Made by a program: the position numbers and the translations under genes
Shown: positions 7,039-32,000 of the stretch, one piece after another
Position numbering within the stretch: position 1 is the stretch's first letter
Layout of the letters: the number at the start of each line of letters is the position of its first letter
Assembly: GCF_018398935.1 (NCBI RefSeq)
Contig: NZ_CP074694.1
Coordinates: forward strand, 4,200,001-4,232,000
DNA from: Telmatocola sphagniphila
GTDB lineage: Bacteria > Planctomycetota > Planctomycetia > Gemmatales > Gemmataceae
DNA: 32,000 nt
Reading direction: 5' to 3'
The notes under the pieces: model-generated
The model's input: only the letters and a program-made list of their open reading frames with translations
What the model was told of the DNA's origin: nothing
Databases searched by the model: none

Positions 7039-7152
7039 CTCCGTCTCAGAACTCTAGTATCTACCTTGACTCTACTTCAGAAAAGTTCGGAGTGCACAGA
7101 AATTAGGAGCCAGAATCTCAACTATTTCCGGCTACCCATCTCTCGTCAGGCC

Positions 7153-8112
7153 TTAATGTTGCGACACAGACAAAAACTGTTCGTAATAACCCGCCATTTG
7201 CCGGACTGTGCCATCCGGATCGGTTTTTCGCATCTGCTGCAGTCGTTCTGCAAATTCCGAGACATTGCGCTCGGCCGCCACCCGGACCGTGCCCAGGCGT
7301 ACGGCCGCATTGGAATCCCGGCTGAGTCTTTCCAGCCAGCGGACATCCAGTTCCCGATCTCTTCTCAAGTCCAGGAGCAGATCCAATCTTTCGCGGGGAT
7401 CGGGATGGGAAATTCGTCTCGCCAGCCGAATCATTTCTTCGTCCAAGCCTCGCGTTTTCAGGCAGGATTCGCAAATGGCACTGATCTCGGGATCTTTGTC
7501 GTGCAAAAATGGAATCAGGGATTCGGTATCCAGGCAATCCCGACCCGTTTCCGAACCGGGTCCCACCAGAAGCAGGGCCATTTGGCGAACCTCTTTTTCC
7601 GAGTCTTTCAAGCGGAGCAAAACCAACTCGGGATGCTCAGGAACCTTGTGACGTACTGCGGAAACGACTTCCTTTCGCAGTACGGCATCCCCCTTTTTCC
7701 AGGGATCCAGTGCGACGACATATTTAGTGCGAAGCAATTCGGGTAAGAGATCCTGGATTATCTTTTGCGATTCCTCAGGGCAAACCGAATGAATTTCCGA
7801 GATGCAGGAAATCAGCTGATCCGCCATCTCCGGTTGCTCTCCCCAGACCGGGAGAACGGCTTTCAGGATCCGACCGGCCGCTTGGCGTTTCGAACTTTCT
7901 TGGGATTTCAATGAATTCAAAATCCGATCCAGCCCGACTTGTCCCCGACTGGCGAAATTGATGGCAAGCTTGGGGTCGATTTCCGAGACGCTCTGCAGGC
8001 GGTACCAGTCATACTCGAGTTTCAGCGCGTCGTACTTCCAGAGAGCGAGGCCCGCCGCAAGCAATATACCACTAAATCCAACAAACAGAACGCGCTTCGA
8101 TAGCAACTTCAT
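7153..8112 (-). CDS. membrane-anchored HEAT-repeat protein
   Basis: Track ORF runs to 8148, but the ATG at 8112 has GGAGGG exactly 6 nt upstream. N-terminal TM segment VLFVGFSGILLAAGLALW. Recurrent HEAT-like units (DSEKEVRQMALLLV, HPDPRERLDLLLDL, DSNAAVRLGTVRVAAE). Confidence 0.7.
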   Translation of the reverse strand: MKLLSKRVLFVGFSGILLAAGLALWKYDALKLEYDWYRLQSVSEIDPKLAINFASRGQVGLDRILNSLKSQESSKRQAAGRILKAVLPVWGEQPEMADQLISCISEIHSVCPEESQKIIQDLLPELLRTKYVVALDPWKKGDAVLRKEVVSAVRHKVPEHPELVLLRLKDSEKEVRQMALLLVGPGSETGRDCLDTESLIPFLHDKDPEISAICESCLKTRGLDEEMIRLARRISHPDPRERLDLLLDLRRDRELDVRWLERLSRDSNAAVRLGTVRVAAERNVSEFAERLQQMRKTDPDGTVRQMAGYYEQFLSVSQH

Positions 8113-8333
8113 GGGGATCCCTCCGCTGAGAGTGAGTAATTCTTTCAAAAATTCCCTCTCTCGGCAAGACCAACCCAGCGGCGAGGATCCGCACTTCCGC
8201 CATTAAATTTGCCCGGGCCGCGAGTTCTCCAGGCAGGAATGGAAAGATTGCCTCCCGTTTGGCACTACCCCGATTCCCCGACAACCTCTATAAATCCTTG
8301 ACGTTCTCACACCTGATTCAGGAAGCGATTTCC

Positions 8334-9533
8334 ATGAAGATTCATGAATATCAAGCCAAGGAATTGCTCGCCGCCGCAGGGGCTGCGACTCCCAAGCATA
8401 TTGTTGTGCACACTCCGGAAGAAGCGGCGGCGGCTTTTGACCAGCTCTCGAACGGGGGCGGGGTGGTCGTCAAGGCGCAGGTCCATGCCGGCGGTCGTGG
8501 TGCCGGGCAACTGCTCGGATACAACGAGAAATTGGGCGGTGTGAAGTTCTGCACCAGCAAGGAAAAAGCCAAGAGTGTGGCTGAATTAATGCTCAAATAC
8601 CCTCTGAAAACCAAACAGACGGGTCCGGAAGGGCAGAAAGTTTCCACCCTGATCGTCCAAGCTGATGCGGAACCGGTGAAGGAATATTATCTGGGCATGG
8701 TCCTGGATCGGGCGATCGGTCTCCCCGTCATCATGGCCAGTACCGAAGGCGGTATGGACATCGAGGAAGTCGCTCATAATACCCCGGAAAAGATTTTGAA
8801 GCGAGCAGTCAACCCGCTGACGGGCTTGCTTCCCTTCCAGGCACAGGCCCTGGCCTTCGATCTGGGCTTCACTCCCGATCAGGTGCCTCAGGTTGTGAAA
8901 ATTCTTCTCGCCCTCAGCAAGGTGTATCTGGAAAAAGACGCCACCCTCGCCGAGATCAACCCGCTGGCTATCACCAAGTCGGGCAAAGTGGTTTGCCTCG
9001 ATGCCAAGATCGATTTCGACGACAACGCCATGTTCCGGCACGAAGACATTGCGAAATTACGCGATCTCGCCGAAGAAAATCCGGCGGAAATTCGAGCCGG
9101 CAAAGCTAACCTGAACTTCATTCAGCTCGATGGCAACATCGGCTGCCTGGTGAATGGGGCCGGGCTGGCCATGGGCACGATGGACATCATCAAGTACTCC
9201 GGCGGCGAACCGGCCAACTTCCTGGATGTCGGTGGTGGGGTAACACCGGAAGCTGCGATCGAAGCTTTCCGAATCATCCTAGGCGACCCCAAGGTCAAAG
9301 GCATTCTGGTGAACATCTTCGGCGGTATCGCTAGCTGTGCACTGATTGCCGAAGCCCTGGTCAAAGCCGGACGGGAAGTTGGTTTCAAGGTGCCCGTAGT
9401 GGTGCGACTGGAAGGCAATCAGGTAGATAAAGCCCGGGAAATTCTCAAGGCCGCGCAGGCGGAATTACCAATGATTCGCAGCGCCCCGAATCTGACGGAA
9501 GCGGCCAAGATGGTCGTCGCCGCCGCAAAATAA
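8334..9533 (+). CDS. sucC: succinyl-CoA synthetase (ADP-forming) beta subunit
   Basis: MKIHEYQAKELL N-terminus (ATG 8334, internal to track ORF 8259-9533). ATP-grasp region VVVKAQVHAGGRGAG. C-terminal GCLVNGAGLAMGTMDII...NFLDVGGG...VNIFGGI. Confidence 0.95.
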   Translation: MKIHEYQAKELLAAAGAATPKHIVVHTPEEAAAAFDQLSNGGGVVVKAQVHAGGRGAGQLLGYNEKLGGVKFCTSKEKAKSVAELMLKYPLKTKQTGPEGQKVSTLIVQADAEPVKEYYLGMVLDRAIGLPVIMASTEGGMDIEEVAHNTPEKILKRAVNPLTGLLPFQAQALAFDLGFTPDQVPQVVKILLALSKVYLEKDATLAEINPLAITKSGKVVCLDAKIDFDDNAMFRHEDIAKLRDLAEENPAEIRAGKANLNFIQLDGNIGCLVNGAGLAMGTMDIIKYSGGEPANFLDVGGGVTPEAAIEAFRIILGDPKVKGILVNIFGGIASCALIAEALVKAGREVGFKVPVVVRLEGNQVDKAREILKAAQAELPMIRSAPNLTEAAKMVVAAAK

Positions 9534-9596
9534 TCTCAAGCATCGCCCAACTTGAACTCCTGGATTAACCTCGGCTTTCACCACAGGATGCTCCTC

Positions 9597-10460
9597 ATGA
9601 GATTTGCAATATTTCTAATGGCACCGGCCATCTGTCTGATTGGCTGCGGCCCGGCACGGGTGAAGCCGACTGCTACGACTACCGAAACGACCACCCCTGC
9701 AGTCTCGAAATCCACAACGCCCGTAAATAACGAAGTCAAAAAAGACAGTTCGGAAAAGACCAATAAATCCGCTTCGCTCCCCATCAAAGAACAAGCCGAA
9801 CAATTCCTGGCCCGATTGTCCAAAGGCGAGGCCAAAACGAGTGAACTGAGCGCGGCCTTCAAAAAGCAGATCACACGGCCTCGAAATACAGAAGAGAAAG
9901 CACTCGGTTACTCCGACTCCCTGGCCCACGACTGGCTCGATAAACTGGCTGGGGCAACTTACAAGAGCAACTCGAATTTCAGCCAGCTCACCAATCAGTA
10001 CACGCTCATGGGTACAGTCACTGGTGGTCCGAAGACGGAGTATTTCGTGCTTCGCATGGTTATGCTGCCGGGCAAAACGCCGGAAGTGAATTGGTTTCAT
10101 CGCTCCAACCTTCGGGCCGGCGATCGCACGGCTCAAGCCAGCCCTGATGTCGACGCCGCACGCGACTTTTTAGAGGTGGCCGGCAGTGGTCAGGAAACTC
10201 TCACCGCATCGCTGTTGACCCCGGAATTCCGAGCGAAGATCGCTGAACCGCTGAGTTCCGACAAGGAGTTCGGTTACAACATTGGCATGTTGAATTTAAA
10301 AATCAAAGCCTGGCGAGCCACGGCAATAACCATGACCGTCGGCAACGACCTGGGCACCTTCAGCGGTGAATTGATCAACGGCGATCAGAAGAAAAGCTAC
10401 AAGTTGAAGCTGGTGAACAAAGACGGTAACTGGCTGGTCGAGAATTTCGAAGTGCAGTAA
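9597..10460 (+). CDS. lipoprotein with two tandem NTF2/DUF4878-like domains, inserted between sucC and sucD
   Basis: The ATG at 9597 (AGGA 9 nt upstream) gives MRFAIFLMAPAICLIGC with lipobox LIGC. A Thr-rich linker TATTTETTTP follows. Two similar ~100-aa halves (see finding). Confidence 0.75.
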   Translation: MRFAIFLMAPAICLIGCGPARVKPTATTTETTTPAVSKSTTPVNNEVKKDSSEKTNKSASLPIKEQAEQFLARLSKGEAKTSELSAAFKKQITRPRNTEEKALGYSDSLAHDWLDKLAGATYKSNSNFSQLTNQYTLMGTVTGGPKTEYFVLRMVMLPGKTPEVNWFHRSNLRAGDRTAQASPDVDAARDFLEVAGSGQETLTASLLTPEFRAKIAEPLSSDKEFGYNIGMLNLKIKAWRATAITMTVGNDLGTFSGELINGDQKKSYKLKLVNKDGNWLVENFEVQ

Positions 10461-10532
10461 TTCGATTTGCTAGAAAACGGACTGCATGAGCGGTCTTCTG
10501 AAATATGGCAGGGATTTTACCAAGGGAAACAC

Positions 10533-11411
10533 ATGAGCATACTTGTCGACAAGAACACACGAGTAATCTGCCAGGGACTGGGCAAGGCCGGTACCTTCCA
10601 CTCCATTCAATGCCGGGAATACGGCACTCAGATGGTGGGAGGGATTACTCCGGGCAAGGGCGGACAGGTAAAGGAAGGTTTCCCGTTATTCAATACGGTC
10701 TATGACGCCGTGCGTAAGGAAGGTGCCACGGCCAGCATGGTGTTCGTACCGCCGCCGGCCGCCGCGGATGCCATCATGGAAGCGGCGGATGCAGGGATTA
10801 AGGTCATCATTGCAATTACCGAAGGCATTCCGGTTCTGGATATGGCACGTGTGGCGGCCTTCCTCAAAGAGAAGCCAGGCGTCCGCCTCGTCGGGCCGAA
10901 CTGTCCCGGTGTGATCACGCCAGGCGAGTGCAAAATCGGTATCATGCCGGGTTACATTCACAAACCGGGTACGATTGGCGTGATTAGCCGCTCGGGCACA
11001 CTGACCTACGAAGCCGTGTTTCAATTGACGGCTCTCGGGTTGGGTCAGTCAACCTGTGTGGGAATCGGTGGAGACCCGATTATCGGCACCAATCAGATCG
11101 ACTGTCTAAAACTGTTCCAGGATGACCCGGGAACAGAGGCTATTCTGATGATCGGTGAAATCGGTGGCACCGCCGAAGAACGGGCGGCCGAATACATCGC
11201 CAAGCATGTCACCAAGCCAGTCGCCGCGTTCATTGCGGGCCAGACCGCTCCTCCGGGTCGGCGGATGGGTCACGCGGGCGCTATTATCTCGGGGGGTTCG
11301 GGAAGCGCTGTGGATAAAATTGCCGCTCTGAAGAAGGCTAACATCGAAGTGGCTCCTACCCCGGCCGATTTGGGCCAGGCCGTGAAGACCGCGATGAGCA
11401 AGAAGAAATAG
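10533..11411 (+). CDS. sucD: succinyl-CoA synthetase alpha subunit
   Basis: [16 protein letters not shown] start (ATG 10533, AAGGGA SD). CoA-binding fold. SRSGTLTYE and phosphohistidine loop [11 protein letters not shown]. Confidence 0.95.
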
Positions 11412-12085: not shown

Positions 12086-13126
12086 TTGAACAGACACCTG
12101 ACTAAGCGTAATGGCTTTACCCTCATTGAGTTACTGGTTGTAATCGCCATCATTGCAATTCTGATCGGCCTGCTATTACCGGCAGTCCAGAAGGTCCGGG
12201 AAGCGGCTGCCCGCGCTCAGTGCAGCAATAATCTCAAGCAAATCGGCCTGGCCCTGCACAATTACGAAAGCGCCAATGGCTACTTCCCGACTGCCTACAA
12301 GATGCTTTCCACATCTGACCCCGCCGCGCCGGCGGGAACCGGCACGTTTGGGCCATCGGTCTTAGTGCTGATCTTGCCCTACTTGGAACAGGACAATCTT
12401 TATGCGAAAATCGACATTACCAAGGCAGCGCTCAATCCAGTGAATATGCCGGCGAATAATTCCGCTTACTCGACTTCTGTAAAAGCGTTTCTCTGCCCTT
12501 CCACCCCCGCGCCTACCACCGTGGACTATTCAAACGAGTTGTCCAACAGTTTCAATAATTTCGGGATTACCGTCAGCTTTCCCACGGGGCTGATCTTCGG
12601 AAGAGCGGACTACGCGCCTGATGCGGGGATGCAGGCCGAGGAACCGGGCATCAACATCAATGCCGGAGCCTCAATCATTTGCCAGCCACCCGATGGACCG
12701 GTACGCATCACTGCGATTACCGATGGTACTTCGAACACAATGATGATCGTGGAAGACGCCGGTCGGCCCACCTGGTACGGTAGCAAAGGCCCTGCCCTGG
12801 TATCCGGTTACAGTGGCGCCGCCGGCACGACCCCTCAAGGCGGCGGCGGCTGGGCCGATCCTCTGAACTACATCGCCACCAATGGGGCCGATCCTCTCGG
12901 CACTGGCATTGCCGCTGGAGGGAATTTCATGGGAATTCCCGCCGCTCCCTGGTCCTGCGGTAATGGCTGCAGCAACGACAGCGAAGTTTTTGCCTTTCAC
13001 ACCGGCGGCAGCAACGTCTGTTTTGGAGATGGCTCCGTACGCTTCGTGAAAAACGGTCTAACCATGGGCCAGATGCAAGCCCTGCTCAGCCGAGCGGGCG
13101 GTGAAATTATCAATTTCGAATATTAA
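12086..13126 (+). CDS. DUF1559 protein with prepilin-type N-terminal cleavage/methylation leader
   Basis: TTG start with AGGAGA SD 5 nt upstream. KRNGFTLIELLVVIAIIAILIGLLLPAVQKVREAAARAQCSNNLKQIGLALHNY is the canonical planctomycete DUF1559 N-terminus. C-terminal FHTGGSNVCFGDGSVRFV motif. Confidence 0.9.
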   Translation: MNRHLTKRNGFTLIELLVVIAIIAILIGLLLPAVQKVREAAARAQCSNNLKQIGLALHNYESANGYFPTAYKMLSTSDPAAPAGTGTFGPSVLVLILPYLEQDNLYAKIDITKAALNPVNMPANNSAYSTSVKAFLCPSTPAPTTVDYSNELSNSFNNFGITVSFPTGLIFGRADYAPDAGMQAEEPGININAGASIICQPPDGPVRITAITDGTSNTMMIVEDAGRPTWYGSKGPALVSGYSGAAGTTPQGGGGWADPLNYIATNGADPLGTGIAAGGNFMGIPAAPWSCGNGCSNDSEVFAFHTGGSNVCFGDGSVRFVKNGLTMGQMQALLSRAGGEIINFEY

Positions 13127-13140
13127 GCAGGAGCCAGAAC

Positions 13141-13557
13141 GTGCGAAGTTTGTATTTTTTCCTGGGAAGCCTGCTGGCATTAGCAAATTCTGCTTGCGGC
13201 GATCAGAACAAGATTTACCCAGTGAGCGGCAAGGTGACCTATAAAGGCTCCCCGGCGGAAGGAGCCACGGTTTTCTTCCACCGCCAAGGGGGCGACCCGA
13301 TAAACGATCCGATGATTATGGGCATCGTTCTTGCGGATGGTTCCTTTGAAATCGTCTGTGGTTCGCAGGGCAAAGGTGCGCCGCCAGGCGATTATGACGT
13401 GTTGATCGAATGGAAACGAACCCTAGGCCAGTTCAAAGGCGGCCCGCAACATGGACCTGATAAATTGAAGGGCCGTTACGCAAGTCCCAAGCAACCGCAG
13501 CTGCATGCCCTCGTGGAGGCGAAGCCAACTGTTCTACCGCCATTTGATTTGAATTAA
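13141..13557 (+). CDS. small exported protein, carboxypeptidase-regulatory-like fold, DUF1559 partner
   Basis: GTG start with AGGAG 8 nt upstream, 14 nt after the DUF1559 stop. Signal MRSLYFFLGSLLALANSAC (Cys at the cleavage site, possible lipoprotein). YPVSGKVTYKGSPAEGATVFFH is typical of the small beta-sandwich proteins that follow DUF1559 genes. Confidence 0.75.
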   Translation: MRSLYFFLGSLLALANSACGDQNKIYPVSGKVTYKGSPAEGATVFFHRQGGDPINDPMIMGIVLADGSFEIVCGSQGKGAPPGDYDVLIEWKRTLGQFKGGPQHGPDKLKGRYASPKQPQLHALVEAKPTVLPPFDLN

Positions 13558-13602
13558 AACGGACACTCGGTTGGGCCGCGAAAAAATTTCTGGGGAGCCT
13601 CG

Positions 13603-14334
13603 CTATTCGGATGGAACTGCCGAACAGCGGCTATCCCCCAACTCATCCAGGGCATTCTGTGCGGCCAGGGCCTCGGCCTTTTTTTTACTCGGCCCCCAGG
13701 CCGGTTTGAACCGACGATCGCCCACTTCCACTACAACTTGAAAGGAGCGCGAGTGCTCCGGCCCCTGCTCGTCCAGCACTCGATAGGTTGGCGTTTGACA
13801 GAACTTCTTCTGGCAAAGTTGCTGCAGGTTGGACTTGGCGGCGTTCAGAAGATCTTCGTCTTTCAGAACTCTATCGATTTCCGGTTTCAGGAATTTCAAA
13901 ATGAAATCCCGAGCGACCGCAAAGTTGGAATCGAGATAGACGGCTGCCACGAGAGACTCAAAAGCATCGGCCAGAACGTTGCCGGGAATTTTCGGGTTGC
14001 TGCGGATGGCCCGGCCCAGAATCATGAAACGGGCCAGTTCCAGCTGTTCGCTGAATTTGATGCATGCTTCCTTGGCCACCACGGCGGATTTGATCTTCGT
14101 CATCATCCCTTCATGGAAATTGGGATGCTGGAGATACAATTCCTCAACGACCACAAGCCCTAGAACGGCGTCCCCCAGAAATTCCAATCGCTCGTTCGAA
14201 TGCTCCCGAGTATTCGCCCCGGAGGTGTGCGTAAGGGCGGCCACCAGTAGTTCTCGGCGTTGGAACTTGTAGCCGAGAATATTCTCGAGTTCGGCCCAAT
14301 TATCTTCTTTCGCGGTATTCGTAACAGCCGTCAT
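13603..14334 (-). CDS. rnc: ribonuclease III
   Basis: Signature NERLEFLGDAVL. Catalytic region DAFESLVAAVYLD. C-terminal dsRBD ...GPEHSRSFQVVVEVGDRRF...GPSKKKAEALAAQNAL. Start is either the ATG at 14334 or the upstream TTG at 14373, which has GGAAGG 9 nt upstream. Confidence 0.92.
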   Translation of the reverse strand: MTAVTNTAKEDNWAELENILGYKFQRRELLVAALTHTSGANTREHSNERLEFLGDAVLGLVVVEELYLQHPNFHEGMMTKIKSAVVAKEACIKFSEQLELARFMILGRAIRSNPKIPGNVLADAFESLVAAVYLDSNFAVARDFILKFLKPEIDRVLKDEDLLNAAKSNLQQLCQKKFCQTPTYRVLDEQGPEHSRSFQVVVEVGDRRFKPAWGPSKKKAEALAAQNALDELGDSRCSAVPSE

Positions 14335-14421
14335 ATGGAACCCGACGAAGCTTTCCCCAACCCCTGGCTGCAATCATTGCCGCCTTCCATAAAGATAATC
14401 AATGGGAGAGTCAAAATCCAA

Positions 14422-15105
14422 ATGAATCGGGATGCTATGAGTCAAAAGTTCGCGGCCTTGTGGGATGTGGATGGAACACTTGTCGACACCGGCGAAATGC
14501 ACTTCCGAGCCTGGAGGAAGATGTCGCAAGAGTTAGGGGTCGATTTCACCCGGGAACACTTTCGCGCCACCTTTGGAAGACGTAACCCGGAAATCATCCG
14601 CTTTATTTACGGCGATCATATTTCCGAAACGGAAAGTCAGCGGATCGCAAATACCAAAGAACGTTATTACATGGACGAGGCTCGGCAGGGAGTCCAACTG
14701 CTTCCCGGCGTCCGTACTTTACTGGAACAGCTTCAAAGGGCCGATTTCAAACAGGCGATTGGCTCGTCCGCTCCTCGCGCTAATCTCGAACTGATTTTGG
14801 ATTTAACGGACTCCCGCATATTCTTCGAGACTGTCGTGGCAATGGAGGACACTTCCCGAGGCAAACCCGATCCCGAGGTGTTTCTTACCGGGGCAAGCCG
14901 TCTTGGGATTACGCCCTCGCAGTGCGTTGTCTTTGAAGACGCCGTGGCGGGAGTTCAGGCCGCTAAAGCAGCGGGAATGAAGTGTGTGGCCGTGACCTTT
15001 GTTGGCCATCACGGTGAGGAGAAACTTCTTGAAGCCGGTGCCGACCGCTGTGTAAATCGGCTGGATGAACTTACGGCGGACGATGTTCGGAAATTATTTA
15101 AATGA
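14422..15105 (+). CDS. HAD-superfamily hydrolase, beta-phosphoglucomutase-like subfamily
   Basis: Motif I ALWDVDGTLVDT, motif II IGSSAPR, motif III/IV GKPDPEVFL...VVFEDAVAGVQAAKAAGM. Start is the ATG at 14422 (GGGAGAG 11 nt upstream) or at 14437. The long upstream part of track ORF 14260 overlaps rnc and is rejected. Confidence 0.9.
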   Translation: MNRDAMSQKFAALWDVDGTLVDTGEMHFRAWRKMSQELGVDFTREHFRATFGRRNPEIIRFIYGDHISETESQRIANTKERYYMDEARQGVQLLPGVRTLLEQLQRADFKQAIGSSAPRANLELILDLTDSRIFFETVVAMEDTSRGKPDPEVFLTGASRLGITPSQCVVFEDAVAGVQAAKAAGMKCVAVTFVGHHGEEKLLEAGADRCVNRLDELTADDVRKLFK

Positions 15106-15903
15106 GTATTCCGGGCTGGGGAAAACCCCATCCCGAACCTCTTCCCGGAACTTCTCCGCGGCCTGGCGAATCGCAGAGCCCAGATCGGCGTATCGCTTTA
15201 CGAATTTCGGCCGGACCTCATCGAACATCCCCAGCATGTCCTGAACAACCAGTACTTGTCCATCACAATTCGGGCCGGCTCCGATGCCAATAGTGGGGAT
15301 CGTCAACTTTTTGGTGATTTCCTCCCCAAGTGGAGACGGAATGCATTCGAGGACCACGGCAAATGCCCCCGCTTGCTCAACGGCGAGAGCATCCTCCAGA
15401 ATCTTCGCCTCATTCCGCTGCACTTTGAACCCGCCGAAAGCATGGACACTCTGCGGCGTCATCCCGACGTGACCCATCACGGGAATATCACATTCGACGA
15501 TCCGGCGGATCGCCTCGGCACAGCGAATCCCACCTTCCAATTTCACAGCCTGGGCACCGGCTTCCTTGAGCATTCGCCCGGCGCTGATAATTGCCTGCTC
15601 GGCACTGGTCTGGTAGGTCAGAAACGGCAAATCGCCAATCACCAACGCCCGGCGAGCGGCCCGACTAACGCAGCGCGTATGGTACAGACTTTCTTCCAGG
15701 GTCACTGCCAGAGGATTGTCGTTCCCCTGCATGACCATTCCCAGGGAATCGCCAACCAAAAGAGCATCCACGCCCGAAGAATCCAGCAATAATCCGGTGG
15801 TGTAATCGTAAGCCGTGAGAACGGATAGTTTACGGCCAGCTTTTTTTGCGGTTAAAAAATCAGGAACGGTCATGCGGACCGTCTTTTTGGGTGTCTCAGC
15901 CAT
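15094..15903 (-). CDS. panB: 3-methyl-2-oxobutanoate hydroxymethyltransferase
   Basis: 269 aa. LSVLTAYDY, LLVGDSLGMVMQG, AVKLEGG and VMGHVGMTPQS are PanB hallmarks. Its 3' end overlaps the HAD gene by 12 bp. Confidence 0.95.
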   Translation of the reverse strand: MAETPKKTVRMTVPDFLTAKKAGRKLSVLTAYDYTTGLLLDSSGVDALLVGDSLGMVMQGNDNPLAVTLEESLYHTRCVSRAARRALVIGDLPFLTYQTSAEQAIISAGRMLKEAGAQAVKLEGGIRCAEAIRRIVECDIPVMGHVGMTPQSVHAFGGFKVQRNEAKILEDALAVEQAGAFAVVLECIPSPLGEEITKKLTIPTIGIGAGPNCDGQVLVVQDMLGMFDEVRPKFVKRYADLGSAIRQAAEKFREEVRDGVFPSPEYSFK

Positions 15904-19690: not shown

Positions 19691-20143
19691 TCAGACGGGT
19701 TCGTTTCTCAGCACGCGAAAACCAAAGCCCTCCAGATCGATCATATCCACTTTGCCCCCTTCACCGTTGATATCCGAACCCGATTCGATCATCAGTCGTA
19801 CAAAGCACCAGATATGGGCGGCCTCGCCGTTGTGATCGTAGCCGTTGGCGTCGGTGTCGGATTCGATCAGCCAGTACCAACTCCTTCGGTCGGTCCCCGA
19901 ATCGGTCGCTTCCTCTTGCCAACCTTTTAACGTTCTTTCGACAGCTTCCCGCGCAAGCTTCCAGACCTTGTCCGTTTTGATTTCGATGGAAAGTTCGTCG
20001 GGGGTTTGAGTAAATTCCGTTCCGGGAAGCAGGCGAATCGCTTCGAACAGGCGATGCTCGATGGCCATGCAGCGCCAGGGTGACCAAAGGTAAAAAGTGA
20101 TGCCCTTGGTAATGAAGGTCATGCCGTAAAGATTGATGTTCAT
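19691..20143 (-). CDS. hypothetical acidic Trp-rich protein
   Basis: 150-aa ORF with AAAGG 8 nt upstream of the ATG at 20143. No recognisable family. Convergent with rnr, 6-nt gap. Confidence 0.55.
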   Translation of the reverse strand: MNINLYGMTFITKGITFYLWSPWRCMAIEHRLFEAIRLLPGTEFTQTPDELSIEIKTDKVWKLAREAVERTLKGWQEEATDSGTDRRSWYWLIESDTDANGYDHNGEAAHIWCFVRLMIESGSDINGEGGKVDMIDLEGFGFRVLRNEPV

Positions 20144-26530: not shown

Positions 26531-27754
26531 TCAGGAAGGAAGGGGTCGCAGAATCACGATCAGCGGCTTAACATCCGGTTTGTTATCACCGCGCTGATCC
26601 AGAAACTGCCGACTCTCTTTACTTGGAAGCAGATTGGTTTTTTCAGACAATGGAACTACCAGGAACTGGTGGGCAATTTTGGCGTTACCGCGAATCCCCT
26701 GGGTTAACCGGCTGCCAGTATTCAATTCCAAGGGTTGCTTAGGATCGATTGGCGTAGAGACCTTACGATTAAGTTTCAGCTGCGCCGTCGGGACACCGAT
26801 GGACCGGCTCAAACGTTCCAGATCCGATACCTGATGGGGGAAGAACACGAAGCTTCCGAAGAAGGTGTCCTCTTTGGTCTTGGAAGCTCGCAGAACATCG
26901 TCTTTACCCAACTGCTGCAATAGATTTGCGATCTCCGACTGGTTCAAACTCTCGGTGAAGAAGACCAATTCCAGAAGCTGCTTGCGTTTGAAAGCTTCAG
27001 CAATTCGTGAATCGACATGGCCAACTAAATTGCGAGCTTTAAGAGCCGTTTGAAGCGTTTCGGAAGCCTTGGCTATATCTCGGGTGAAGATATCCACTCG
27101 AACAATCTCTTCTCGGCTGAGTTCCGTAACCAACTTTTTGAACGGGTAATCCTGCTCGAGATCTTTGAGCGGAAAGAGGAGCGGCAAGCGTCCGGAGGGG
27201 GCGATATTGAACTGCACTTCGGAGCGGAACGGATTGGCCAGAATTTCATCGACTTCCCGGGGTGCGGGCAGGATTTCAGCCGTGGGTAGCGCTTCACGAT
27301 TGGTTTCGGCACGCGGAATTTGAACGAGTTGGGGGCTCGACACAGTTTCGGGCGTTATCTCTGGTACCGTTGGTATTTGAACTACTCGAAGCTCCGGCTT
27401 GGATTGCTTTGCTAAATCGCCCGGGCTACCTTTGTTGGAGTAGAAAATTCCCACTCCGGCGAACAATAGTAAAGATGCGGCAATTGCAACGATTGTGCGA
27501 ATTCTGCGGGCTGTACGGCCTACATTCGCCGGTTTGACAGAATTCAGCTTTTGAATCACCCGATTTTGGACAGAAATCGGCCGGGTTTCTTCCGTAGCGC
27601 GGCGAATAGCACCGCGCATAGTCAGGAATGCCGCGTGCAATTGGCCCGCTTCGGGGTTTTCCGCAATCAATCGAAGCGCCGAAGCCTTCTCGGCGGGGTT
27701 CAATTCCCCATCGATGTAAGCGGAAATCAGTTCTCGGTCTTTGGCTTTCAACAT
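26531..27754 (-). CDS. single-pass anti-sigma factor with large uncharacterised extracytoplasmic domain
   Basis: 407 aa, starting 7 nt after the ECF sigma stop. N-terminus DRELISAYIDGELNPAEK is the anti-sigma N-domain pattern but has no Cys or His-x3-Cys-x2-Cys. TM segment IVAIAASLLLFAGVGIFY. About 290 aa of C-terminal domain with no recognised family. Confidence 0.7.
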   Translation of the reverse strand: MLKAKDRELISAYIDGELNPAEKASALRLIAENPEAGQLHAAFLTMRGAIRRATEETRPISVQNRVIQKLNSVKPANVGRTARRIRTIVAIAASLLLFAGVGIFYSNKGSPGDLAKQSKPELRVVQIPTVPEITPETVSSPQLVQIPRAETNREALPTAEILPAPREVDEILANPFRSEVQFNIAPSGRLPLLFPLKDLEQDYPFKKLVTELSREEIVRVDIFTRDIAKASETLQTALKARNLVGHVDSRIAEAFKRKQLLELVFFTESLNQSEIANLLQQLGKDDVLRASKTKEDTFFGSFVFFPHQVSDLERLSRSIGVPTAQLKLNRKVSTPIDPKQPLELNTGSRLTQGIRGNAKIAHQFLVVPLSEKTNLLPSKESRQFLDQRGDNKPDVKPLIVILRPLPS

Positions 27755-27761
27755 TTTTGGG

Positions 27762-28334
27762 TCAGGGTTCGATTTCCAATCGCTCCAGGATTGTCTTCAA
27801 TTCTTCGCGGGCCCGGTGCAGCCGACTGCGAACCGTTCCGACAGGTATTTCCAATATCGAAGCAATTTCTTCGTAAGGAGTGTCTTCCACGTCCTTGAGC
27901 ACAATAATCAATCGATGTTCGGTCGACAACATCGACAAAGCCCGCTGCACTTCAGCGGCTTTTTCCCGACGATCCAGCGGACGCGTGGGATCGGTCGAGC
28001 TAATTTCGCCGGCAATTTCAAGGCCGTTTTGATCTTCGCCCCGAATCGCTTCCACAGAAATCAAGGGCTTTTTGGATCTTAGAAAACTTACGGCCGCGTT
28101 AAAAGCTATTCGATAGAGCCACGTATAGAATTGCGATTCACCCCGGTATTTCGCCAAGGACTGAAAAGCACTAATAAAGGCTTCCTGACAGACATCCGCC
28201 GTATCTTCGGGGGAATGCAAAATCTGCCGGACGGACCGGTAAAGCCGGTCCTGATGGCGTTCGATCAGTTGGCCGTAAGCGGAGGTGTCGCCCCCTTTTG
28301 CCCGGCTCAAAAGCTCTGCATCGTCAGCAGCCAC
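27762..28334 (-). CDS. ECF (group 4) sigma-70 family RNA polymerase sigma factor
   Basis: 190 aa, GTG start. Region 2: DVCQEAFISAF...FYTWLYRIAFNAAVSFLR. Region 4: YEEIASILEIPVGTVRSRLHRAREEL. Confidence 0.92.
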   Translation of the reverse strand: MAADDAELLSRAKGGDTSAYGQLIERHQDRLYRSVRQILHSPEDTADVCQEAFISAFQSLAKYRGESQFYTWLYRIAFNAAVSFLRSKKPLISVEAIRGEDQNGLEIAGEISSTDPTRPLDRREKAAEVQRALSMLSTEHRLIIVLKDVEDTPYEEIASILEIPVGTVRSRLHRAREELKTILERLEIEP

Positions 28335-28415: not shown

Positions 28416-28434
28416 ACCTATAAATAGGTATACT
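28416..28434 (+). promoter_or_regulatory. palindrome ACCTAT-aa-ATAGGT overlapping a TATACT -10-like hexamer upstream of uvrA
   Basis: ACCTAT 28416-28421, ATAGGT 28424-28429, TATACT 28429-28434. It ends 31 nt upstream of the uvrA ATG. There is no convincing -35. Confidence 0.25.
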
Positions 28435-28465
28435 AGATCAGTCAGCACACCACTTGAGCGGGTAC

Positions 28466-31400
28466 ATGGAAAGTCAGCAGATCGTCATTCGCGGTGCTCG
28501 CGAACACAATCTCAAGAATGTAGAACTTCAACTCCCCCGCAACAAGCTTATCGTTTTCACCGGTGTATCCGGGTCGGGGAAAAGCTCACTCGCTTTCGAT
28601 ACCCTGTATGCCGAGGGCCAGAGACGCTACGTCGAAAGCCTCTCCAGCTATGCCCGGCAATTCCTGGGTCAACTCCCCAAGCCCGACGTCGATTTTATCG
28701 GCGGTTTGTCGCCCACCATCTGCATCCAACAGAAATCGGCGGCCCAAAATCCCCGTTCCACGGTCGGCACAGTCACTGAAATCTCCGATTTCCTACGCGT
28801 TCTTTATGCTCGCATCGGGCTGGGCCATTGTTCTGAGTGCGGCCGACCGATCACAGCGCAATCCCGCGATCAGATGATCGAGCGGATTCTGGCCCTCCCC
28901 CCCGATTCGAAATTCCTAGTCCTGGCACCGATGGTCCGCGGCCAGAAAGGGGAATTTAAGGATTTCTTCGCCGAGCAATTGAAAAAGGGGTTTGTCCGCG
29001 CCCGTGTTGATGGCCGAATTGTCCGCATGAGCGACGATTTGAAGCTCGATCGAAAAATCAAACACTTCATCGAAGTGGTGATCGATCGGCTCGTCGCTAA
29101 CGGGAAGAATCGTACTCGCATTGCCGAGGCCGTCGAGCAAGCCTTGAAGCTGGGCGGCAGCAACTGCATCATTTCGGTTGAAAAGGAAAAACTCAAAAAG
29201 CCGGCCGAAGCTACAGAAAGCGACGGGAACGAATACGAAGATATCCTGCTTTCCTCCGACTATGCCTGCACCCATTGCGGTATCAGTTACGAACCCCCCA
29301 GCCCGCAGTTGTTCAGTTTCAATTCACCCCAGGGAATGTGCTTGGAGTGCGATGGCCTGGGAACCCGTTTCGCCTTCGATCCCACTCTGCTGGTTCCCGA
29401 CGAAGAGAAATCCTTTGAGCAAGGATGTTTCCCGATCGTTGGTCCTTTAAAGGGAATGGGCCGCTGGCGCAAACACATTTTCGAAGGGGTCGGAAAGACG
29501 CTCGGGATCAATCTGAAGACTCCCTGGAAAAAGCTCCCCGCGGAGCAACAAAAACTCCTCCTTTACGGCTCCGGCAAACAGCACATTACCTTCGAATGGA
29601 AGATGCGCGGCGGTAACATCTGGCGGCACGGCGGAGAATGGGAAGGGGTCATTCCTCAACTCATGACGAGCTTCAAGAAGACGGCCGCCGGGCCACGCCG
29701 TCACCAGCTCGAAAAGTACATGCGGGTGCAGAAATGCGCCGCTTGTGGTGGACACCGACTCAATCCCCAGGCTCGTGGCGTGCGCGTCGCCAATAAATCC
29801 CTGGTCGAGGTCGGTTCCACGCCCATTGGTGAGCTGAGCGAATGGTTTGAGATTCTTCCCAAAAAACTCGATGCGATTCAAAAGATTATTGCCGTCGATT
29901 TGTTGAAGGAAATTCGAAGCCGATTGACCTTTCTCCTCAATGTGGGGCTCGATTATCTGAATCTGGATCGCACGGCTCCCTCTCTGTCCGGCGGCGAAGC
30001 TCAACGCATTCGGCTGGCCGGGCAGATCGGTTCCGGCCTCGTGGGCGTGTTGTACATTCTCGACGAACCGAGCATCGGACTGCACCCGCGCGATAACGAA
30101 CGACTGCTCGCCAGTCTCGAGCGGCTGCGCGACATGGGTAACACCGTCCTGGTTGTGGAACATGACGAAGACACGATGCGGCGCTGCGATTTTCTGGTCG
30201 ATTTCGGGCCGGGACCGGGAGTGCGCGGCGGACAAATCGTGGCCGCGGCCTCGCCCGCCGAGGTGATGGCCTCCGGAGTCTCCCAAACTGGCCAATATCT
30301 TTCTGGAAAAATTCAGATTGAGATCCCCAAGGAACGAAAGGCTCCGGGGGCCCGGAAGATTTCCATTCGCGGCGCCCGACACAACAACCTTAAAGATGTC
30401 TCAGTCGATATTCCGCTGGGACTATTCGTAGTCGTTACGGGAGTCTCCGGTTCTGGCAAAAGCTCCCTCGTGAACGAAGTTCTGCTGGAAGGTTTGCGAT
30501 CGCTGGGACGGGAAGCCAAACAGGAAAAGTCGGAGGAAGAGGAAGAGCACCTGATCGAAGATCAGGTCATCGGTACGCGCTGCGATAAACTTTTAGGCGC
30601 CGATGAAATCGACAAAGTGATCGACATCGATCAGAAGCCGATCGGGCGGACGCCTCGCTCGAATCCGGCGACATACATCAAGCTTTTTGATGAAATTCGC
30701 AGTCTTTTTGCTCAAATGAGCGAATCTAAACTGCGCGGCTACCAGCCGGGACGCTTCAGCTTCAATCGTCCCGGCGGCCGTTGTGAGAGCTGCGAAGGGA
30801 ATGGCTCGAATAAGCTCGAAATGGACTTCCTGGCCGATGTCTGGGTCACCTGCCCGGTGTGCGAAGGCAAGCGCTTCAATCGGGAAACTCTTCAAGTTCG
30901 CTATCGCGGCAAGAATATTTTCGAAGTACTGGATATGGACGTGCAGGAGGCTCTGCAGCACTTCGAAAACGTTCCCAAGGTCCGCGCCATGCTGCAGACA
31001 CTGCATGATGTCGGGCTCGATTACATCAAATTGGGGCAGGCTTCCCCCACCTTATCTGGCGGCGAGGCTCAGCGCATAAAATTGGCACGCGAACTCTGCC
31101 GACGAAGCACCGGCAAAACGCTCTACATTCTCGATGAACCGACCACCGGCCTGCATTTTGAAGACATCCGCAAGCTTCTGGAAGTGCTGCATGGCTTCAC
31201 AGCGGCGGGCAATACCGTTCTGGTGATTGAGCATAATCTGGACGTTATCAAAACGGCGGACTGGATTATCGATCTGGGACCAGAGGGGGGTAAACGGGGC
31301 GGCGAGATCGTCGTGACTGGCACACCGGAAACTGTGGTCGCCTGCAAAAAATCGCACACCGGACAGTCACTCGCTCCATTCTTCCAGAAGAAGAAACTCA

Positions 31401-32000
31401 ACGGAAGGCCGACGAAGCCCACCGCGGAAAAGACTCGCGCGGTAAACGAGCGCATCACTCATATTTGCGTCACCGGAGCTCGCCAGAACAACTTGAAGGA
31501 TCTAACCGTCCGGATACCGCGAGAAGAAATGTCGGTCTGTTGCGGACCCAGCGGTTCCGGGAAAAGCACTCTGGCCATCGACACGATCTATGCCGAAGGC
31601 CAACGGCGGTATGTGGAAAGCCTTTCCAGTTACGCCCGCCAGTTCCTGGGACAGGTTCAAAAACCCCGGGTAGAATCGGTCAGCGGGCTTTCACCAGCTA
31701 TCAGCATCGAGCAGAAAACCACCAGCCGCAGTCCCCGTTCCACAGTGGGAACGATCACGGAAATCTACGATTATCTCCGCGTTCTGTACGCCCGGCTCGG
31801 CCAACCCTACTGCCCCAATTGTCAACTGCCGATCGGCACTCAATCGGCCGATGAGATCATTGCCAAAGTTATGGCACTTCCTGAAGGCAGTAAGCTGTAT
31901 ATCCTCGCGCCGCTCGAGCCGCGCGGCCAGGAAACCTACCAGATTCTCTTCGATGAAATACGATCCGGAGGTTACGCCCGCGTTCGCGTTAACGGTAAAA
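28466..32000 (+). CDS. uvrA: excinuclease ABC subunit A, tandem UvrA-UvrA fusion (3'-truncated by window end)
   Basis: Not in the supplied track. I translated frame 2 manually from ATG 28466 to 32000 and found no stop. Module 1 (28466-31453) contains [56 protein letters not shown], Zn modules CSEC/CTHC, CLEC/CAAC and CESC/CPVC, two LSGGE motifs, a second Walker [13 protein letters not shown], and [10 protein letters not shown]...[10 protein letters not shown]...DLGPEGG. Module 2 starts at 31454 with [17 protein letters not shown]...[37 protein letters not shown]...CPNC.... Confidence 0.9.

Follow-up and report, generated by a model that had tools for sequence, protein, structure and literature searches.

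Canonical class I UvrA proteins of bacterial nucleotide excision repair (NER) are about 940 amino acids (aa) long and form homodimers. UvrA has to dimerise for DNA binding, and each UvrB makes contact with both protomers, through the UvrB-binding domain of the one and the signature-II domain of its partner; once two UvrB are bound, the UvrA dimer interface loosens or separates before hand-off (PMC11985968). A longer form is found in Chlamydia trachomatis, in which the uvrA gene CT333 comprises 5,361 bp and encodes 1,786 aa; five transposon insertion mutants of this gene were recovered (PMC6686042). The subject of this study is a tandem uvrA gene of the planctomycete Telmatocola sphagniphila (family Gemmataceae). 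Its 5' part lies at the end of a stretch of 32,000 nucleotides (contig NZ_CP074694.1, positions 4,200,001 to 4,232,000, forward strand), which was analysed as a whole and is referred to as the window. An earlier annotation of this stretch, made by a model without database searches, is called the original prediction.

The chlamydial long UvrA has a dedicated NCBIfam equivalog, NF001885/PRK00635, with 1809 positions. The Chlamydiaceae proteins share the head-to-tail UvrA-UvrA layout of the window protein and are likewise annotated as plain UvrA. Full-length ATP-binding cassette (ABC) proteins arise by the fusion of two half-size subunits, by which an obligate homodimer becomes one chain whose halves then diverge. 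UvrA differs from such fused half-proteins in that it already has two nucleotide-binding domains (NBDs), so that a fusion gives four, and in that no membrane domain is involved. Class II UvrAs (UvrA2, DrrC and Ecm16; PDB 2vf7 and 7sh1) are likewise UvrA paralogues with two NBDs, but have neither a UvrB-binding domain nor the first Zn module (PMC9328131). Some tandem families use modules of this type. No study on tandem, double or class III UvrA was found in the literature searched, and a 2021 NER review leaves tandem UvrA unmentioned. An older review is said to sort UvrA paralogues into classes, perhaps with duplicated forms among them.

The tandem uvrA gene in the window

Frame 2 is open from position 28424 to 32000 (0 stops in 1192 codons), with a TAA immediately 5' of it. 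The ATG at 28466 is the first Met of this frame, and homologue alignments begin at their residue 1. The gene is missing from the supplied list of open reading frames (ORFs) because those running off the end of the source are omitted there. Compared with the NCBIfam UvrA equivalog NF001503, the encoded fragment yielded 1634.5 bits in two stretches. Most likely, the window holds at most the 5' 60% of a uvrA gene that is planctomycete and Gemmatales-like. The positions of its features are collected in Table 1.

Module 1 matches models and solved structures of canonical class I UvrA end to end. When residues 1-996 were scanned, NF001503 gave 1361.6 bits over model positions 3-941 of 943, which is above the cutoff of 1147. 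The score against TIGR00630 was 1311 with a cutoff of 730, assigning the module to class I. Pfam domains found in module 1 are UvrA_inter (PF17760, two stretches), UvrA_DNA-bind (PF17755) and ABC_tran (PF00005). LSGGE signatures are located at aa 507 and 863, Walker B motifs at aa 529 and 886 and the Cys pairs of the Zn modules at aa 122/268, 292/424 and 773/796. Both ABC ATPase sites required of a class I UvrA (Walker A, Walker B, LSGGE and H-loop) are present. The nearest solved structures are 9gxk, 2r6f, 3zqj and 3pih, and the matches to them span almost the full length.

Module 1 is followed in frame by a linker and a second UvrA N-terminus. In the window protein, the linker was delimited from SHTGQSL (aa 963-969) to the GAR anchor, with GARQNNLK opening module 2. 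Measured from anchor to anchor in 105 tandem proteins, the linker has a median length of 36 aa (range 29-73) and an Arg plus Lys content of 20%; Ala, Arg, Lys and Pro are abundant in the tandem family. Set against the free N- and C-terminal tails of canonical UvrA, which total about 19 aa, a linker of about 34 aa is scarcely more than both natural termini plus some 15 residues. No in-frame ATG, GTG or TTG occurs across the junction (aa 960-1009). The first start-like codons beyond it, TTG at aa 1010 and ATG at aa 1022, both lie within the conserved core of module 2. The N-terminus of module 2 (aa 997-1178) aligned to positions 5-184 of NF001503 with 278 bits, contains another PF17760 stretch and shares 54.7% identity with module 1 over 181 aa. 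A class II assignment does not apply to this gene, as the UvrB-binding domain and first Zn module are both present in module 1, while module 2, as far as it is visible, shows the first Cys pair and the beginning of that domain.

Of 8000 hits obtained from 5.8 billion proteins, the 120 best were inspected. All of them are two-module proteins with a length of about 1570-2060 aa, and most come from Planctomycetota. When these were searched with module 1 by phmmer, two modules were found in every one, with module 2 aligning to module 1 positions 5 to about 970. Entries that carry a protein name are called 'excinuclease ABC subunit UvrA', and those with a named source come from Gemmatales, Gemmataceae, Isosphaeraceae, Pirellulales, Planctomycetaceae, Gemmatimonadetes and Poribacteria. 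The highest identity of the window protein to any relative is 73%. Both modules are complete in 109 proteins, taken from database hits and ORFs of related loci (single relatives are cited below by their working numbers, beginning with P or L). In a scan of one genome per species, a contiguous junction was found in metagenome-assembled genomes (MAGs) of Phycisphaerae, Gemmatales (L002, 73%), Pirellulales, Blastopirellula, Mariniblastus and Kuenenia, and also of Latescibacterota, Poribacteria, Chlamydiae, Fibrobacteres and a 'delta proteobacterium'. An exact 40-nt piece of the linker DNA had 0 matches in GTDB representative genomes.

Judged by its sequence, the gene is a genuine in-frame, head-to-tail fusion of two class I UvrA protomers. 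It is hardly credible that a stop was missed, that a frameshift is involved or that two neighbouring uvrA genes were collapsed or joined into a chimera during assembly. Obvious frameshifts do occur in some related Nanopore-type MAG loci (L005 and the tail of P0006), but nothing positive points to such an error in the window itself. A missed stop is excluded because the junction is uninterrupted in more than 100 independent assemblies from several phyla, and repeat collapse is excluded because codons differ between the copies, at 13 of 22 positions even in the one block of 22 aa that is identical in both.

The structural claims of the original prediction that could be checked were all borne out. 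It had described frame 2 as open to the window end and the gene as invisible in the ORF track, had read from ATG 28466 a complete class-I-like UvrA with two Walker A motifs, two LSGGE signatures and three Cys4 modules including a Zn-flanked UvrB-binding insert, and had placed behind it a second UvrA N-terminus running past 32000; the open frame, the model matches, PF17760 and the Cys pairs listed above agree with this reading. Our recount also gave 13 synonymously differing codons in the 22-aa block. The linker had been described as rich in Lys, Pro and Thr and free of stops; measured between the two anchors, it extends over 31373-31474, against the proposed 31375-31453.

Distribution, age and divergence of tandem UvrA

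In a HMMER pass over 1.84 billion cluster representatives (50% identity), about 135 of the best 150 matches were double-length proteins. P0241, which represents the cluster of the window protein at this level, has 2,334 aa and is 63% identical to it. Typing of the 109 representatives with two full modules gave 40 that combine class I with class I lacking the insertion domain, 31 of class I plus class I, 25 of class II plus class II (about 1,600-1,680 aa) and 13 mixed forms. Neighbour-joining separated at least three deep tandem families, and in each of them the module 1 clade and the module 2 clade contain the same proteins. Family A has 42 representatives, including a Planctomycetota protein and a 'delta' MAG. 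Family B has 29 representatives, which are of class II type and include Polyangia. Family C contains Planctomycetota, Latescibacterota, Poribacteria, Chlamydiales (P0247 and L018), Fibrobacteres and Heimdallarchaeota MAGs. The window protein belongs to family C, as its modules lie in one frame and its module 1 is orthologous to the other module 1s. Based on the presence of at least three deep families and the many module combinations, fusion of UvrA protomers looks either recurrent or very ancient.

The tandem layout is old, widespread and already present in public databases under the plain name UvrA. As a sequence feature it is ordinary, double-length UvrAs being abundant in public data. A 1,916-aa tandem of class I plus class I, 46% identical to that of the window, was observed in several MAGs labelled Candidatus Heimdallarchaeota or Heimdallarchaeaceae (P0244, P0400, P0402; MCE7749780.1, MHA1218230.1). 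Either a gene transfer from bacteria to Asgard archaea or an error in binning could explain its presence there.

The relation to the chlamydial long UvrA was addressed with NF001885. The window fragment scored 855.3 bits and the full-length relatives P0001, L015 and L018 (the latter from a Chlamydiae MAG) scored 1387, 1410 and 1484. All these values are below the cutoff of 3054. By these scores, the window protein and its full-length relatives fall outside the narrow chlamydial family, and the ordinary UvrA model matches them twice. On the module 2 side of the tree, the environmental Chlamydiales tandems P0247 and L018 group with the family of the window protein. The module trees include no Chlamydiaceae sequence, which leaves orthology with the narrow chlamydial equivalog unproven.

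For the module trees, 109 complete tandems (database hits and locus ORFs) were cut into modules and aligned with 48 canonical UvrAs from the same genome scan; trees were calculated by neighbour-joining with 100 bootstraps. The identity between module 1 and module 2 within one protein is 54% on average and ranges from 44 to 61%. Three long-branch tandems were left out, namely those of the Chlamydiae MAG L018, of Fibrobacteres (L021) and of the 'delta proteobacterium' L022. With the remaining set (107 proteins and the 48 canonical UvrAs), all module 1 sequences formed one clade and all module 2 sequences another, each supported by 100/100 bootstraps. When L018, L021 and L022 are included, the support for the split between module 1 and module 2 drops to 0/100; we treat this as a failure to place these sequences and not as an argument against a common origin. 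Module 1 of the window lies within the module 1 clade (100/100), with P0001 and P0002 as nearest neighbours. Compared with the Gemmatales orthologue in L002, module 1 and the visible part of module 2 each have a dN/dS of 0.11, and dS is close to saturation. Synonymous sites compared between the two modules of the window protein are saturated (pS 0.78). The tree, the dN/dS values and the synonymous saturation indicate that duplication and fusion are older than the divergence of these lineages and that both halves have been maintained.

Each module retains the full set of domains and motifs of canonical class I UvrA. In 108 module 1 and 107 module 2 sequences, the Walker A Lys, the Walker B Asp-Glu, LSGGE, the H-loop His and the twelve Zn Cys are about 100% conserved, as in canonical UvrA. 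The idea that one module has degenerate ATPase sites was rejected on these values. The UvrB-binding region was found in every module 1 and every module 2 of the family of the window protein; a few lineages, among them Poribacteria (e.g. P0109), Fibrobacteres and the delta-proteobacterial MAG, have a module 2 without the insertion domain. Module 2 diverges more than module 1 in every domain. In canonical UvrA, 308 alignment columns show at least 95% conservation; module 1 retains 253 of them and module 2 retains 208. The sole fixed switch is E568 to R, adjoining the NBD-I H-loop of module 2. These sequence comparisons suggest a mild asymmetry, with module 2 freer to change and module 1 near canonical.

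The original prediction had read the locus as an old duplication under purifying selection and not as a mis-assembly, which is in line with the two-module relatives, the 100/100 clades and the dN/dS of about 0.11. It had also suggested aligning the two modules and building a tree of the separated modules; the 54.7% identity and the separate clades are the outcome of these comparisons. Its statement that chlamydial uvrA genes have about double length agrees with the 1,786 aa of CT333 and the 1809 positions of NF001885. The proposal of a trait of the Planctomycetes-Verrucomicrobia-Chlamydiae superphylum has to be abandoned, given that the same family occurs in MAGs labelled as Latescibacterota, Poribacteria, Gemmatimonadetes, Fibrobacteres and Heimdallarchaeota and that other deep tandem families exist. 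Four ATPase sites per chain, as it had expected, are conserved in relatives; the further idea of specialising halves gained little support, as no ATPase or Zn motif is lost and module 2 is simply more diverged.

Organisation of the chain and gene splits in relatives

We consider it probable that the chain folds as an intramolecular pseudo-dimer, which would be equivalent to the UvrA2 homodimer and would load UvrB in ordinary NER. In such an arrangement, the two modules would fold back onto each other and a single chain would provide four ATPase sites, two UvrB-binding domains, two insertion domains and six Zn modules. As in ordinary NER, the chain would search the DNA, detect damage and load UvrB, with module 1 as the conservative and module 2 as the more variable half. 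The sequence comparisons show the fusion, its age, the purifying selection on both halves and their intact motifs, whereas the intramolecular pairing, the loading of UvrB and the role in NER are inferred. Compared to canonical class I UvrA, two protomers are joined covalently in a chain of about 1,950 aa or more. As the halves are only about 54% identical, the 'dimer' would be fixed and asymmetric, unlike the canonical homodimer; the halves have evolved apart since before these phyla diverged, so that the sensor would be built asymmetric. The product is likely one polypeptide, because the junction has neither a stop nor a start-like codon and the linker is short and unstructured in composition.

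Several points weigh against this reading. Module 2 stops at its aa 182 in the window, so its completeness is taken from relatives. A covalent tether would constrain the hand-off step of the published model, in which the dimer interface loosens or separates (PMC11985968). Finally, some close relatives have the gene split at the inter-NBD linker of module 2, so that 'one chain' is not valid for the whole lineage.

In a sub-lineage of Gemmataceae, the tandem gene is divided exactly in the inter-NBD linker of module 2 by a GTGA stop/start overlap (L082:13079-13082), giving one chain of 1,630-1,740 aa and one of 710 aa. The overlap suggests translational coupling. Seven independent proteins (P0040, P0051, P0062, P0065, P0066, P0092 and P0118) end in the same linker. 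In the Phycisphaerae-like MAGs L001, L003, L010 and L011, the gene is split at the equivalent linker of module 1 instead. In L001 (Phycisphaerae MAG, 7069-8444), the module 1 pieces lie about 1.2 kb apart, with a 189-aa ORF between them. The two ORFs of L001 carry short peptide-coding repeats (SQSAIRNSQ..., SREGIPA..GARRDSRTS) in frame in linkers, and these recall the intragenic REP (repetitive extragenic palindromic) insertions reported in uvrA genes (PMC3733652).

Since relatives tolerate the divided gene, separate chains can evidently assemble. This observation bears on the possibility that the fusion is cut in the linker after translation, or that module 2 is also made from an internal start, resulting in a heterodimer of separate UvrA-like proteins. 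The linker is basic, of low complexity and probably exposed, and the GTGA overlaps at inter-NBD linkers would fit such a process. However, the absence of start-like codons at aa 960-1009, with the first ones located inside the conserved core of module 2, and the position of the natural splits away from the junction between the modules make a heterodimer improbable. A somewhat better candidate, which we still regard as unlikely, is a dimer of tandems with eight ATPase sites, in which each module would pair with its counterpart in another chain, or a module 2 that acts as a fused paralogue with its own job, as class II UvrAs do in drug or damage tolerance. The faster evolution of module 2 in every domain, the loss of its insertion domain in several lineages such as the Poribacteria (P0109) and the 25 representatives composed of two class II-type modules would be in line with this, and class II UvrAs that stand alone act in roles independent of NER (PMC9328131). 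In the family of the window protein, however, module 2 has kept its UvrB-binding domain together with every Zn module and ATPase motif, which is the signature of class I NER proteins and not of class II, and both modules have co-evolved across phyla as a fixed pair. The intramolecular pseudo-dimer remains our preferred reading.

Two questions in bacterial NER are how an asymmetric pre-incision complex, with a single UvrB on the damaged strand, arises from the symmetric UvrA2-UvrB2 complex, and whether the UvrA dimer must separate for hand-over of the lesion (PMC11985968). The tandem chain would constitute a natural experiment, as its 'protomers' are tethered and can be mutated individually. 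Changes could be confined to a single side, be it in any of the four ATPase sites or in a UvrB-binding or insertion domain, which is impossible in a homodimer.

C-terminal region in relatives and genomic neighbourhood

Many planctomycete tandem UvrAs have a conserved region of about 345 aa following module 2. Single ORFs of 2,330-2,425 aa with this region were found in L004, L006, L007, L009, L013 and L014, and it is also present in P0241 and in L002, the protein of which is 73% identical to that of the window. No Pfam match and no PDB sequence match were obtained for this domain. Two units of about 150 aa within it reveal an internal duplication (27% identity, E = 2e-8), and many Trp, His and Arg are invariant. 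The search for homologues yielded 300, and all among the matches listed are fragments of UvrA genes; the named ones are mostly excinuclease ABC subunit A, and the organisms given are Gemmataceae or Planctomycetes. An AlphaFold model based on an alignment of 80 sequences reached a pLDDT of 92 and a pTM of 0.71; the single-sequence model was unusable (pLDDT 35.7). Foldseek found only weak local likeness of the model to the C-terminal, DNA-binding domain of T4 MotA and to type III secretion chaperones.

It is possible, if rather doubtful, that the window gene runs about 3.5 kb further and ends in this twin-repeat domain, which would then be a new NER accessory module on an asymmetric single-chain UvrA. 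Its role would be, for example, that of an extra saddle for binding DNA, lesions or partners. If this is true, planctomycete UvrA represents a distinct repair machine beyond a fused dimer. The C-terminal domain and the lineage-specific gene splits are the likeliest sources of novelty among the features of the relatives.

Table 1 Features of the tandem uvrA gene, its neighbours in the window and the related loci
Feature	Position	Strand	Description
Tandem uvrA gene, 5' part	28466..32000	+	3,535 nt, 1,178 codons; ORF continues beyond window end
Module 1, complete class I UvrA	28466..31372	+	aa 1-969; NBD-I with UvrB-binding and insertion domains, NBD-II, three Cys4 Zn modules
Walker A of NBD-I, module 1	28562..28588	+	aa 33-41, GVSGSGKSS; Lys conserved to 100% in both modules and in canonical UvrAs
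Second Walker A, module 1	30440-30466	+	aa 659-667
22-aa block, two copies	28607-28672 and 31589-31654	+	Same protein sequence; 13/22 codons (14 nt) differ
Inter-module linker	31373..31474	+	aa 970-1003, 34 aa; basic, low complexity
Module 2, N-terminus	31475..32000	+	aa 1004-1178; ends at window edge
Walker A of module 2	31544-31570	+	Motif in visible part of module 2
First Zn1 Cys pair of module 2, CPNC	31811-31822	+	Start of UvrB-binding domain also visible
ECF (extracytoplasmic function) sigma factor gene	27762..28334	-	Divergent from uvrA; Pfam Sigma70_r2, Sigma70_r4_2, Sigma70_ECF
Putative anti-sigma factor gene	26531..27754	-	Downstream of ECF sigma gene; RseA_N 26.6 bits
C-terminal domain, examples in relatives	L004:13520-14638; L002 ORF aa 1729-2105; P0043 aa 1665-2010; L082:14150-15211		
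Split gene, L082	8001-13082, then 13079-15211		1693 aa, then 710 aa (NBD-II and extra domain)

The tandem uvrA gene of the window is flanked by a divergent ECF sigma factor gene, and the same is true for the Gemmata-like loci L081 and L082. The gene order common to all three is Ser/Thr kinase, NAD-binding oxidoreductase, AP_endonuc_2 TIM barrel protein, anti-sigma factor, ECF sigma factor and divergent uvrA; the anti-sigma position in L081 and L082 is occupied by an ORF of 385-435 aa without Pfam match. A regulatory link between the sigma/anti-sigma pair and uvrA is possible. The scan for promoter-like sites, which does not cover ECF-type promoters, revealed none 5' of 28466.

Elsewhere in the window, a DUF1559/N-methyl protein is encoded at 12086-13126; like the gene order shared with L081 and L082, it marks the stretch as planctomycete. 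ORFs without Pfam match (E <= 1e-4) are located at 222-2000 (+, 592 aa), 13141-13557 (+, 138 aa) and 19691-20143 (-, 150 aa). Between a sucC-like gene (8259-9533) and a sucD-like gene (10467-11411) lies an ORF of 302 aa (9552-10460), also without Pfam match; such an insertion is unusual, as the two genes are normally neighbours.

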